In this document: positions 25,434-36,635 of the stretch, piece by piece
Numbering within the stretch: position 1 is the stretch's first letter
Layout of the letters: every line of letters starts with the position of its first letter
Source of the DNA: an uncultured Flavobacteriales bacterium
GTDB lineage: Bacteria; Bacteroidota; Bacteroidia; Palsa-965
Reading direction: 5' to 3'
Assembly: GCA_937974275.1 (NCBI GenBank)
Contig: CALJIF010000041.1
Span: 36,498 to 100,497, forward strand
Length of the DNA: 64,000 nucleotides
Made by a program: the position numbers and the translations under genes
Notes under the pieces: model-generated
Seen by the model: only the letters and a program-made list of their open reading frames with translations
What the model was told of the DNA's origin: nothing
Database searches by the model: none

Positions 25434-25910
25434 TTAATTGGGATCCGTTATAGCCAGTTTTCTAACCTTATATCCGGCAGAGGAATAGATGTATATATAA
25501 TAAATACCGATCGGATAGTTGGTGCAATCAACCTGAAACAAGTACTGATTAAAACCAACGAAAGAATTGTTGTAATACAATTTGCCGTAGCGATCAATAA
25601 TTTGAACGTAGATTGGTTCCGGATACCACAAAAGCACATTCACATTGATGTAATCAATAGGCGGATTGGGCAAAAAATCGAAATCCAAAGGATCGCAAAT
25701 TCCATACACAAAGGTTTGTACACCGGCATTACGGGAGAAGCAATCATTACGATAAGTAATACCATCACATCCACATACCGGTTCCCATCGAGGATCGCAG
25801 TATGCTCCGTATTGAATCATTGATGAATCGACACATTGAGCTTGCAACACCCTTGGTGCAGAAAACAAAACAAACACAATTGTCAGATATTTTATTACCC
25901 GTAATTTCAC
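25434..25910 (-). CDS. Secreted Kazal-type protease-inhibitor-domain protein with a T9SS-like C-terminal domain
   Basis: Signal peptide. Kazal signature PVCGCDGITYRNDCFSRNAG. The C-terminal ~80 aa resemble a T9SS C-terminal domain (FLPNPPIDYINVNV...GIYYIYIYSSAGYKVRKLAI). Confidence 0.6.
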   Translation of the reverse strand: MKLRVIKYLTIVFVLFSAPRVLQAQCVDSSMIQYGAYCDPRWEPVCGCDGITYRNDCFSRNAGVQTFVYGICDPLDFDFLPNPPIDYINVNVLLWYPEPIYVQIIDRYGKLYYNNSFVGFNQYLFQVDCTNYPIGIYYIYIYSSAGYKVRKLAITDPN

Positions 25911-26009: not shown

Positions 26010-27143
26010 GTGTTGAATGCACAATTTCGCGCCTTTAACGGACGAACAACGATACACAAGACGTTTCAGCACCTGGAGCATATCGGTTATGTACAGATTG
26101 ACACGCTGAGCGTTGTTCAGAGGGCCCACCATCACGTGTTATATGCTCGCAACCCGCTATACACTTGCGATCATATTGCACAATTATTAGCCGAGAAGAA
26201 AATATTTGAATACTGGAGTCATGCTGCTGCTTATTTACCCATGCGTGACTTTCGATTCAGCTTGATTAAGAAACAACAGTACATTGACGGACACCATCAT
26301 TGGTTCAAGAAAAACTCCCGCCTCATGAAATATGTTTTGGACCGGATTAGAGCCGAAGGTCCTATGGAATCGAAAGATTTTGAACATGAAGGAAAGCGTG
26401 GTTCATGGTTCGACTGGAAGCCGGCGAAAATTGCTTTGGAGCAATTGTACATGGACGGTTCATTGATGGTTTTGAAGCGCAACGGATTTCGCAAAGTGTA
26501 TGATCTGACTGAGCGTGTACTTCCTTCCAACATTTCGACTGTTTGTCCAAGTCCGGCAGAGCATGCTGAACACCTGATAATTGGTTACCTCAAAGCACAA
26601 GGCGTTGGAACTATCAGCGACATCTGTCATTTACAAACAAGCCACAAAGCAGAAGTAACGAAACAAATACATCGGCTTGTTGAAGAAAATAAAGTGATCA
26701 CGATTAAAGTGCAGCACTCCACTCAGCAATGGTATTCACTACCTGAGATAAAATCAGATTACAAATTCACCGGCATTCGGATATTATCTCCGTTTGATAA
26801 TTTGATCATAAAACGAGACAGGACCAAAACGCTATTTGACTTTGACTACCAGCTGGAATGCTACCTTCCTGAATCGAAAAGGAAATTCGGTTATTTCAGT
26901 CTGCCGATTTTATCCAACAATAATCTAATTGCAAGAAGTGACATGAAAGCAGACTCGAGGTCAAAAACACTTACGATAAGGTCCTTTCATTTCGACAGTA
27001 AACAAAAACTGACAGCTGAAGAGGAATATCATTTGCTTGAGTGTGTACTTGCATTTGCACGATTCAACAACTGCCTACACGTTCACTGCGAAAAAAATGT
27101 ACCGATTGCAATACGCCGTTTATTGCTTAGTCCAGGAATTTAG
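26010..27143 (+). CDS. YcaQ-family winged-helix DNA-binding protein (DUF1006; putative interstrand-crosslink DNA glycosylase family)
   Basis: 377 aa. N-terminal HLEHIGYVQIDTLSVVQRAHHHVLYARNP...YWSHAAAYLP is typical of the family. Confidence 0.65.
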   Translation: MLNAQFRAFNGRTTIHKTFQHLEHIGYVQIDTLSVVQRAHHHVLYARNPLYTCDHIAQLLAEKKIFEYWSHAAAYLPMRDFRFSLIKKQQYIDGHHHWFKKNSRLMKYVLDRIRAEGPMESKDFEHEGKRGSWFDWKPAKIALEQLYMDGSLMVLKRNGFRKVYDLTERVLPSNISTVCPSPAEHAEHLIIGYLKAQGVGTISDICHLQTSHKAEVTKQIHRLVEENKVITIKVQHSTQQWYSLPEIKSDYKFTGIRILSPFDNLIIKRDRTKTLFDFDYQLECYLPESKRKFGYFSLPILSNNNLIARSDMKADSRSKTLTIRSFHFDSKQKLTAEEEYHLLECVLAFARFNNCLHVHCEKNVPIAIRRLLLSPGI

Positions 27144-28145
27144 ATTCCTCACCGGCTTCCACACACCATTCTCTCTCTTGTATAAGGTTGCTCCACCGTT
27201 ACCGCATTGCACACCGCAATGAAATGCCACATACACTATTGCCAAATTACCATCGGAGGAATAAATCGGTTTTGACACTTCATAATAGCCTTTCTTATGA
27301 ACGCCAAAATACTTTCCCCATGCTTTGGTAGCTTTCTTTGAAGATAAGCCTTTAGCGGGAGTCACCTTGCTATTAACGACAGTCGCATTTCTTATACTAT
27401 CGCCATTCCAAACGAATTTGGCCCCGGACGACAACTGCTTTTTCATATAGACTACATCTGCAGTGGTGATGATTCCCTTCATGCTTAAATCACTCAGGAT
27501 AATCGAATCTGTATCCAAATCGCCTGAAATCATACACAACGCCGAGTCTCGCAACAGGAAGGTATCAGGTGCTGTCGAATTAATCAGCGCTGTTTTCAAT
27601 AAGTCTTTGCTGGTTTGACCTTTAAGCCCGAGGTTAAGTGCGAGTACAAGAATTATCGCAAGTCGTATATGTTTCATGCCGACTAAGTTAGTGAAGTTTG
27701 TGGTGAACCAAGAGTCATTTTTAAATGGTTTCATCGCCCCCAGTTGTACCATCTCCTTCTGAATTTGTTCGGGCATGAAATAATCTTGCCCCGGTAGTTT
27801 ATCAGATTGCACTCGAGCTAAAGTATGGGCAAATAATCTTCCGCATCGTCGATATTGTTTGTTCAAAGCCTTGACGTATCCATTCAGAAAGTTTGCGAAT
27901 TTTTGAAGAACCACATCATGAACAACACTTGCATCCGGATGCTCAAAAGTTATTTCTATCAGCAAATGGAATTCGTTTGGCAAAAAGTAGTGATCCCTCA
28001 GAACAACAAATCCATTAAGACGCTGATGCAGCATTTTCAAAAAGTAGGAATAATTGCCTTTATTTTTAAAGATATTTTCGAACGCAATGGCTTTGCTGTA
28101 GACGTGATAAGTGCAGCCGGTTTTGAAAGAGTCTTTGGGTATCAT
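27120..28145 (-). CDS. Single open frame fusing a decayed IS200/RAYT-like HuH transposase domain (N-terminal ~155 aa) to a secreted hypothetical protein (internal signal peptide at MKHIRLAIILVLALNLG, ATG at 27677)
   Basis: N-terminal YHVYSKAIAFENIFKNKGNYSYFLKMLHQRL...FLPNEFHLLIE and ALNKQYRRCGRLFA match the Bacteroidota PF01797-type transposase family (consensus ...MPNHFHLL...). The first His of the HuH motif is Glu and the C-terminal Tyr region is not recognisable. The frame runs on without a stop into a signal-peptide protein. Confidence 0.5.
   Translation of the reverse strand: MIPKDSFKTGCTYHVYSKAIAFENIFKNKGNYSYFLKMLHQRLNGFVVLRDHYFLPNEFHLLIEITFEHPDASVVHDVVLQKFANFLNGYVKALNKQYRRCGRLFAHTLARVQSDKLPGQDYFMPEQIQKEMVQLGAMKPFKNDSWFTTNFTNLVGMKHIRLAIILVLALNLGLKGQTSKDLLKTALINSTAPDTFLLRDSALCMISGDLDTDSIILSDLSMKGIITTADVVYMKKQLSSGAKFVWNGDSIRNATVVNSKVTPAKGLSSKKATKAWGKYFGVHKKGYYEVSKPIYSSDGNLAIVYVAFHCGVQCGNGGATLYKRENGVWKPVRNLNSWTKQ
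27678..28145 (-). mobile_element. Remnant of an IS200/IS605-family (Y1 HuH / REP-associated tyrosine transposase-like) transposase gene, probably inactive
   Basis: See the entry above. HuH is degenerate (NEFHLL) and the catalytic Tyr segment is absent. No IS ends were recognised. Confidence 0.45.
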
Positions 28146-28227
28146 GAAAAAAAATTGGACGGCGAAGGTATAGTGGGGATGAGGGGTGAAGCAAGTGATG
28201 TTGATAACTTCGTTTTGATGTAATAAA

Positions 28228-28260
28228 AAACATTCAATGTCTATAAGACATTGAATGTTT
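28228..28260 (-). terminator. Perfect 15-bp-stem palindrome (aaacattcaatgtct-ata-agacattgaatgttt) with a T-run on the minus strand; likely terminator for icmF and/or a REP-like element
   Basis: Perfect inverted repeat flanked by A-runs. On the minus strand it is followed by TTTTTTATTAC. Confidence 0.55.
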
Positions 28261-36468: not shown

Positions 36469-36635
36469 AAATGAATGTCTGATTATTAAACCGATGATGC
36501 AGACAATGCAGAAAAAATATAACTTTACAATGCCGTGCAAAAAAGCGTCTGCAAAGCTAAAAAAAAATGAAGCGTGCAGCGGAAGTGGCACGATTTTGGA
36601 TACTCATAAAAAGAACTTAAACACAATAACACATC

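Follow-up and report, generated by a model that had tools for sequence, protein, structure and literature searches.

We analyzed a 64,000-nucleotide stretch of DNA from an uncultured Flavobacteriales bacterium (positions 36,498 to 100,497 of contig CALJIF010000041.1; hereafter the window), in which one open reading frame (ORF) on the reverse strand joins a domain related to Y1/HuH transposases to a secreted protein. The reading that we consider probable is that of a derived gene fusion, in which the core of a tyrosine transposase (RAYT) associated with repetitive extragenic palindromes (REPs), no longer active as an enzyme, has been kept for a noncatalytic role and is read through into the secreted protein. 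An initial annotation of the window had described an IS200/RAYT-like domain continuing without a stop into a signal-peptide protein, which the sequence confirmed (Table 1), and had proposed either a pseudogenized transposase or a genuine domain capture. The latter is the better of the two, and is more precisely a gene fusion by stop loss.

Origin of the N-terminal domain

The motifs cited in the initial annotation were located at residues 13–16 (YHVY), 54–64 (FLPNEFHLLIE), and 93–106 (ALNKQYRRCGRLFA) of the ORF. The similarity of the N-terminal region to Y1 transposases, on which that annotation had made its interpretation depend, was present. Distant relatives have a separate 156-aa Y1 gene at the same genomic position (locus L014:423-893; in part in L009). 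Residues 1–113 of the window protein shared 43% identity (E = 1e-21) with the Y1 protein of L009, an intact syntenic ortholog, and in the alignment the N-terminal region was collinear with the intact ortholog from residue 1 to the end. The match to PF01797 that had been announced was not obtained directly with Pfam or NCBIfam, but the relationship held through the intact orthologs, which exceeded the PF01797 gathering score of 23 (24.6 bits for L014 and 23.9 bits for L009), and through the predicted fold.

In the AlphaFold2 model, residues 1–120 had a predicted local distance difference test score (pLDDT) of 82–98 and formed an RRM-like beta-alpha-beta-beta-alpha-beta core. When this model was compared with the PDB with the help of Foldseek, the top 29 matches were all IS200/IS605 TnpA proteins (from IS200, ISDra2, and ISHp608; E values of 4e-5 to 7e-4), and the E. 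coli RAYT (4er8) ranked 31st. As judged from these two routes, one of transitive sequence similarity and the other of predicted structure, the N-terminal part is derived from a Y1/HuH transposase of the RAYT type. No second Y1 copy was found within the window, and the Y1 protein clusters comprised 1–4 contigs each.

Loss of the catalytic residues

In 16 divergent intact family members, the motifs NH[YF]H and Y-I-x-x-N-P-V-x-H-G-F were invariant. The spacing Y---NP is the signature of class 2 (TnpA-REP/RAYT), its Asn being the third metal ligand (PMC6006769). As the initial annotation had noted, the first His of the HuH motif is lost: the motif reads N-E-F-H, with E58 in place of His, in the window and in every fused ortholog. 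It had also stated that the segment carrying the catalytic Tyr was not present. The Tyr is indeed gone, but the segment remains as a decayed, collinear relic (EYIRQNP changed to EQIQKEM). The Tyr column was occupied by Q or E in all fused orthologs, and the Asn ligand and the NPVxHGF motif had disappeared; the ancestral tail ...KSPEKW... persists in the window merely as ...K-PFKNDSW.... Three of the four catalytic residues are therefore lost. Because His, Tyr, and Asn are invariant in the 16 intact members and replaced in the window, the N-terminal core is, by this alignment, no longer an enzyme.

A transposase that is still active, with Glu in the role of His and a different nucleophile, might be envisaged, since Glu can coordinate metal ions and a tyrosine, Y122, is present in the linker of the window protein. 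However, Y122 is not conserved (it is F in L003 and L010 and I in L007), no fused ortholog has a Tyr in the original column, the Asn ligand and NPVxHGF are missing, and the region of the helix is predicted to be disordered. We consider residual activity of this kind extremely improbable.

Conservation of the fused frame in relatives

An orthologous ORF was found in seven independent assemblies of relatives (L001/L002, L003, L005/L006, L007, L008, and L010, taken from ENA, JGI, Logan, and one NCBI metagenome-assembled genome [MAG]). Counted from MIPKD to the stop codon, each was exactly 1026 nt long and free of indels and internal stops, and the N-region was 79–100% identical to that of the window. 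A sequencing or assembly error that erased a stop or shifted the frame, the real locus consisting of two genes, has a virtually negligible probability: two genes do exist in distant relatives, but the uninterrupted 1026-nt frame recurs in all seven assemblies, which come from different samples and pipelines. A separate intact gene with its own stop, which the initial annotation would have taken as the sign of such an error, was found only in the distant loci L014, L009, L015, L017, and L018, where it represents the ancestral state.

The N-terminal extensions of the called genes (products of 364–372 aa) are read in a frame that changes from one relative to another (MNVFLLGQNEV... vs. MFFYCGKPKLSTSL...). 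They cover positions 28146–28240 of the window and their counterparts in L001 and L005, overlying the conserved leader and the second palindrome (pal2). Because their frames differ between relatives, these extensions are artifacts and the true start is M1 at position 28145, which in the alignment coincides with the start of the intact orthologs, the N-termini being collinear. Caution is thus needed with annotations of this locus, as gene callers add spurious extensions and profile libraries overlook the Y1-derived domain.

Ancestral gene order and polarity of the fusion

The ancestral-type order was icmF, hairpins, an intact Y1 gene with its own stop, about 19–30 nt, the gene for the C-domain, and an AlkZ-like gene on the opposite strand. 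It was present in L014, L009, L017, and L015/L016, while L018 has kept icmF, hairpins, and Y1 with a different region downstream. The synteny of icmF, Y1, the C-domain gene, and the AlkZ-like gene spanned Y1 identities from 100% down to 54%. The intact, separate state is ancestral, since its catalytic motifs are common to the whole superfamily. In the tree of the C-domain, the fused sequences formed one clade, and among 482 representative C-domain clusters the long N-terminal extension was found only in the clade of the window, essentially all others being standalone. The fusion is derived and monophyletic.

The Y1 gene has been deleted from L004, where its last nucleotides and the spacer (GCGGCTTGATATTTGTTAC) remain. 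L012 and L013 are also devoid of Y1, despite a mature C-domain nearly identical to that of L015, which bears Y1. These three loci (L012:3926-4001, L013:2516-4001, and L015:4854-5501) differ completely over the interval that begins at the icmF stop and closes with the signal peptide: L015 has a hairpin and an intact Y1 gene, L012 a 75-nt spacer, and L013 an ORF of 491 aa with a signal-like N-terminus of its own. As read from these sequences, the interval between icmF and the C-domain gene is a local replacement hotspot, in which the signal peptide too has been swapped.

Another arrangement was observed in a single MAG. In L018 (CAZBYM010000084), icmF, hairpins, and intact Y1 are followed by inverted alpha-2-macroglobulin (A2M)-like genes, and in L011 (CAZBYM010000146, same MAG) the N-terminal part of an A2M-like gene precedes the C-domain gene and the AlkZ-like gene. 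This suggests that an insertion split Y1 from the C-domain gene.

When L012 (empty locus), L015 (occupied), and L013 (alternative) were aligned, no clean transposon-like ends or target duplications could be recognized. Y1 did not behave as an insertion sequence (IS): it is single copy and syntenic, it has hairpins on one side, and in the window its catalytic residues are lost. The past mobile-element insertion postulated by the initial annotation thus holds as far as the RAYT origin is concerned, but what it left is an ancient, positionally fixed domestication and not a recent IS insertion.

Selection on the fused frame

The ratio of nonsynonymous to synonymous substitution rates (dN/dS) was determined by the Nei–Gojobori method on divergent fused orthologs. 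Codons 1–113 gave a dN/dS of 0.046 (dN 0.057; dS 1.22, saturated), the same value as the mature C-domain (0.046), and the N-domain was 89% identical among fused orthologs at the amino acid level vs. 84% at the nucleotide level. In the closest pair, the window and L005, the N-domain differed by four synonymous and no nonsynonymous substitutions. The dN/dS was 0.52 in the linker, which showed 43% amino acid identity and no indel and was predicted by AlphaFold2 to be disordered (pLDDT <50), and 0.45 in the signal peptide. Because the N-domain has the same dN/dS as the C-domain and none of the seven relatives has lost the fused frame, the N-domain is a repurposed domain under strong purifying selection and not the decaying pseudogene suggested by the initial annotation.

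If the 156 N-terminal codons were the debris of an IS200/RAYT element and the downstream gene alone were alive, this would agree with the loss of catalytic residues, the lack of a Pfam match, and the conservation of the internal start. Such a remnant is nevertheless very improbable in view of the low dN/dS at a dS of about 1.2 over 113 codons, equal to that of a bona fide domain, of the start codon and N-terminus that are collinear with those of intact orthologs, of the confidently predicted fold, and of the conserved promoter-like blocks upstream.

To assess the openness of the linker, we used a neutral simulation in which each observed linker evolved over the observed divergence and stop-free survival was counted. 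A single lineage kept its linker stop-free in about one-third of the runs, and all five did so in 0.08–2% of them, a figure that comes from a star tree overstating the independence of the lineages and that rises to about 1–4% with 3–4 effectively independent lineages. The two other frames of the linker contained 1–7 stops in each sequence. The inter-palindrome spacer was rich in indels in the alignment, while the linker had none. Statistically, these results favor a selective value of the read-through, and the fusion may bring some benefit.

Internal start and secreted domain

The internal Met that precedes MKHIRLAIILVLALNLG (position 27677) is residue 157, not 156. The strongest synonymous conservation of the ORF was found in windows over codons 149–165 around this Met, where seven of eight third positions were invariant (vs. 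0.31 overall), and an element resembling TAnnTTAG, similar to the longest invariant run of the ORF (Table 1), lies ahead of the ATG of standalone genes. By eye, the signal peptide consists of MKHIR (n-region), LAIILVLALNLGL (h-region), and KG|Q (c-region). Standalone homologs begin at the Met equivalent to M157 and have canonical ASA|Q and SFA|Q sites. AlphaFold2 predicted a helix for residues 156–171. Since the strongest synonymous conservation of the ORF surrounds M157, the C-domain protein is probably still initiated there, through either a translational signal or an internal Bacteroidota-type −7 box.

The C-domain belongs to a widespread family (the 482 representative clusters mentioned above) of secreted proteins or lipoproteins of about 190 aa. 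It had no match to a Pfam family. Its model, made with a deep alignment, had a pLDDT of 95 (AlphaFold2), and comparison of the fold with the PDB gave no significant match, the best one (E = 0.04) indicating a weak NTF2- or cystatin-like resemblance.

These features also bear on the possibility that two independent proteins share one stop-less frame, the core (about residues 1–113) acting alone with a tail of tolerated junk, the secreted protein being made from M157 only, and the fusion having no function. The synonymous conservation around M157, the preserved signal-peptide features, the disordered and fast-evolving linker, and the fact that the ancestral genes are separate and can be unlinked all speak for it. 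However, the 43 codons of the linker should then regain stops, with a probability of about 0.65 per lineage, while none of the 5–6 lineages has one, nor any indel, and the omega of the linker is 0.52, not 1. We regard independence of the two proteins as rather unlikely, although it is the main rival of the reading that we favor.

Palindromes and leader upstream of the fused gene

The two REP-like perfect palindromes that the initial annotation had placed next to the ORF were confirmed (pal1 and pal2 in Table 1), and their label is justified because their unit is homologous to a dispersed family and linked to the Y1 gene. Their DNA folding z-scores relative to shuffled sequences were −7.9 (pal1) and −10.4 (pal2). 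The building block is a nearly self-complementary unit of about 15 nt, AGACCTT-S-AAGGTCT, present in 2–4 copies of alternating orientation. The pattern ACMTTNAAKGT occurred four times in the window, always in pal1 or pal2, vs. 0.55 expected. As each arm is self-complementary, the sequence can fold either into a single long hairpin or into a pair of short ones. Compared with the canonical unit, pal2 shows a paired change of C:G to A:T (ACCTTCAAGGT to ACATTCAATGT; window 28230-28258 vs. L018:4807-4853) that preserves the self-complementarity of the arms. The seven fused orthologs had invariant stems but differed freely in the loops and in the spacer between the palindromes.

In other loci, the hairpin unit was found only in the spacer between icmF and Y1, upstream of Y1 and never downstream. 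It was present in every Y1-bearing locus for which upstream sequence was available (in a variant form in L015) and in none of the four loci lacking Y1. Pal2 also fits an intrinsic-terminator-like hairpin for icmF. The sequence GTAG beside pal1 was considered as a REP tag and rejected, since it belongs to the region of the icmF stop and other clades have not conserved it. An Rfam scan of the hairpins gave only subthreshold chance matches.

Two adjacent units with a fixed gap occurred in at least 120 metagenome contigs. Among the matches listed, which are without the window's own clade, the dominant form was AAACCTTSAAGGTTT-N4-AAACCTTSAAGGTTT with recurrent flanks CAGTTAG...GCCCTA and their complement; several hairpins were present on some contigs (four in L020, six in L062, and arrays in L136 and L125), and many contigs shared a single sample (e.g., Ga0164315). 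The dispersed hairpins behave as a family like REPs or bacterial interspersed mosaic elements (BIMEs). The arrays among these matches were located at L020:4425-4786 (four copies at a 111-bp period), L136:42-162, and L125:1208-1254, with three copies at 46 bp and a tandem at 18 bp.

Three matched contigs encode RAYT-like proteins, with the hairpin either immediately upstream of the gene (L081, L037) or in frame within it (L077, L037). The in-frame hairpins are at L077:6070-6098 (gene L077:5859-6467) and L037:1111-1139 (gene L037:885-1343), in genes with NHFH...YIHNNP, where AAACCTTSAAGGTTT-N4-AAACCTTSAAGGTTT encodes NLQGFKNLEG or NLEGFENLQG just past the HuH strand. REP insertions inside tnpAREP genes have been reported for subclass 2.4 of Bacteroidetes and Cyanobacteria (PMC6006769).

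The intergenic alignment also revealed conserved leader blocks between pal2 and the ATG, and in L014 and L015 a ACTTTCGCC-like block also precedes the intact genes. A sigma-70 promoter scan, which does not cover Bacteroidota promoters, gave no match. The promoter consensus of Bacteroidota is TTTG/TAnnTTTG, and the conservation of the blocks, taken together with this consensus, makes them a candidate Bacteroidota-type promoter.

Features of the locus and neighboring genes

Table 1. Coordinates in the window of the fused gene, its parts, and the elements upstream of it
Feature	Position	Strand	Remarks
Complete read-through ORF	27120..28145	(-)	341 aa; ATG start; stop codon 27120-27122; no internal stop
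Y1/HuH (RAYT-derived) core	27807..28145	(-)	Residues 1-113; beta-alpha-beta-beta-alpha-beta
HuH relic E58-F59-H60 (ancestral H-Y/F-H)	27966..27974	(-)	From alignment with intact genes
Linker	27678..27806	(-)	Residues 114-156; what remains, in decayed form, of the ancestral alphaD/Tyr helix and C-terminal tail
Tyr-motif relic E126-Q-I-Q-K-E-M132, aligned to E-Y-I-R-Q-N-P	27750..27770	(-)	Tyr replaced by Q127, Asn ligand by E131
Longest stretch of invariant nucleotides in the ORF, CTTCACTAACTTAG	27683..27696	(-)	Terminates 5 nt ahead of the ATG of M157; putative initiation signal of the C-domain
Internal ATG (M157) and signal-peptide-like segment MKHIRLAIILVLALNLGLKG	27618..27677	(-)	n/h/c regions, small residue at -1; read from sequence
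Mature C-domain	27123..27617	(-)	Residues 177-341; CGxxCGxGG motif
pal1, inverted units TTATACATTAAAGGTCTT / AAGACCTTTAATGTATAA	28305-28341	(-)	Perfect, 18-nt arms; just after the icmF stop (28347)
pal2, inverted 15-nt units AAACATTCAATGTCT / AGACATTGAATGTTT, then T-run	28228-28260	(-)	Perfect, 15-nt arms
Conserved leader blocks GAAGTTATCAACATCACTTGC and ATACCTTCGCC	28161..28211	(-)	Between pal2 and ATG; from intergenic alignment

The fused ORF and the convergent AlkZ-like gene overlap by 24 nt at their 3' ends (27120–27143). This AlkZ-like gene is intact in the window (26010–27143), in L001, and in L005, is found as out-of-frame pieces in L003 (7096–8224) and L010 (4538–5667), and is missing from L008 (1140–1490). 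Two genes away, on the reverse strand at 25434–25910, lies a gene for a small Kazal-like protein with a type IX secretion system sorting domain (Por_Secre_tail), whose synteny is conserved; RnfD/NqrB-like and DUF2330 genes are found beyond it.

Discussion

How the fused gene may have arisen and what it may do can be pictured as follows. The ancestor was a single-copy HuH gene of the RAYT type (class 2, Y---NP) of 156 codons, located between icmF and a gene for a small secreted protein. It was preceded by REP-like hairpins and ended in a stop of its own, 19 nt ahead of the ATG that follows. The clade of the window saw the first His of the HuH motif change to Glu and the helix bearing Tyr and Asn decay to a fast-evolving spacer. 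The stop was lost as well, with a frame adjustment of 1 nt, so that translation from M1 would continue across what was once the signal peptide and on into the secreted protein, catalysis having presumably disappeared before the stop. The core of about 113 residues would be retained for a noncatalytic task, most plausibly binding of the upstream REP-derived hairpins in the form of single-stranded DNA or of RNA. In IS608 and RAYT structures, this core is the hairpin-recognition body. Binding to the hairpins could regulate or insulate the locus, by acting on icmF termination or on the expression of the gene itself. The long form might be exported through its internal signal sequence with an N-in/C-out topology, leaving the dead RAYT domain in the cytoplasm, either tethered or cut off by signal peptidase, and a second product, the C-domain protein alone, would be made from M157.

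In a more elaborate version, the dead RAYT domain would be the cytoplasmic, hairpin DNA- or RNA-binding module of a membrane-spanning protein whose periplasmic part is the former secreted protein, i.e., a one-component transmembrane regulator built from a transposase and acting on the hairpins of its own locus. We find this version distinctly unlikely.

Several observations weigh against a derived fusion retained for a noncatalytic role. When the ORF and each of its halves were scanned with Pfam and NCBIfam, no match was obtained at E ≤ 1, and sequence searches of the PDB with the N-domain (phmmer, small profile) gave nothing meaningful. Sister lineages can do without the intact Y1 gene, since it is lost in L004 and in L012/L013. 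In one MAG (GCA_964495745.1), Y1 and the C-domain gene are apart, with inverted A2M-like genes between them, and given this separation no obligatory functional link between the halves of the fusion is established. No further copies of the hairpin occur in the remainder of the window or in the orthologous loci (about 150 kb), and pal2 is equally well explained as a terminator of icmF, although the two roles are compatible. The internal hydrophobic segment comprises only about 13 residues, a length expected of a signal peptide that is cleaved rather than of a stable membrane anchor. The star tree mentioned above also lowers the force of the neutral simulation. Finally, this interpretation is one drawn from sequences and models. 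As for the other explanations, a pseudogene, an assembly error, and a still-active enzyme are effectively excluded.

The closest known system is that of the class 2 RAYTs or TnpA-REP proteins (Quentin et al. 2018, PMC6006769; E. coli 4ER8). They have the same fold as the N-domain of the window, and the intact syntenic orthologs resemble them by their NHxH and Y---NP motifs, their single copy, and their fixed position, as well as by the hairpin repeats that adjoin the gene and are dispersed elsewhere in metagenomes. The self-complementary hairpin arms are reminiscent of the "double foot" REPs of subclass 2.4 (Bacteroidetes/Cyanobacteria). The intact relatives are, however, shorter (156 aa vs. 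medians of 194 for subclass 2.4 and 179 for subclass 2.6) and have FQ instead of WQ. The window protein differs further by the absence of three residues (first His, Tyr, and Asn ligand), by its decayed alphaD helix, and by its in-frame fusion with a secreted protein, and there are no dispersed hairpin copies within the 64 kb. The best structural matches were with IS200/IS605 TnpA proteins (IS608, ISDra2, Sulfolobus IS200; 2a6m, 2xma, 2f4f, 2ec2; E of 4e-5 to 7e-4, TM-score up to 0.67), to which there is also the PF01797 relationship through the intact orthologs. Unlike these elements, the window gene is neither mobile nor multicopy, has long been syntenic, and has no right-end hairpin and no tnpB; its ancestral motif is of class 2 (Y---NP) and not of class 1 (Y---Q), and the copy in the window is catalytically dead.

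Domesticated prokaryotic transposases (PMC8987985; Bertels et al. 2017, PMC5581495) are likewise immobilized, under purifying selection, and vertically inherited. Known RAYT domestication keeps the catalytic center, whereas here the center is destroyed and the domain has been kept and translationally joined to a neighboring gene. The literature already describes RAYTs and their subclasses in Bacteroidetes, as well as REP insertions within genes (PMC5581495, PMC6006769). Our literature search did not find a catalytically dead RAYT under strong purifying selection as the N-terminal part of the ORF of a neighboring secreted protein.

RAYTs are single-copy, vertically inherited, and conserved. Their role for the host has been an open question since their description, and to our knowledge only REP cleavage and mobilization have been shown. 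The combination of a destroyed catalytic center, a core under selection, and invariant hairpins suggests a selectable noncatalytic function, most simply hairpin binding. The fusion is limited to a single clade of freshwater Bacteroidia that are uncultured, and its mechanism as sketched above is a proposal. The locus is a clean, datable case of gene fusion via loss of a stop codon, in which a signal peptide was turned internal. The fused clade also represents a natural experiment on RAYT function, and a pair of intact and dead orthologs, such as those of L014 and of the window, is suited to biochemical comparison. If the dead domain did act as the DNA-binding part of a regulator, this would be the first evidence that proteins of the RAYT family can serve their host via DNA recognition alone.

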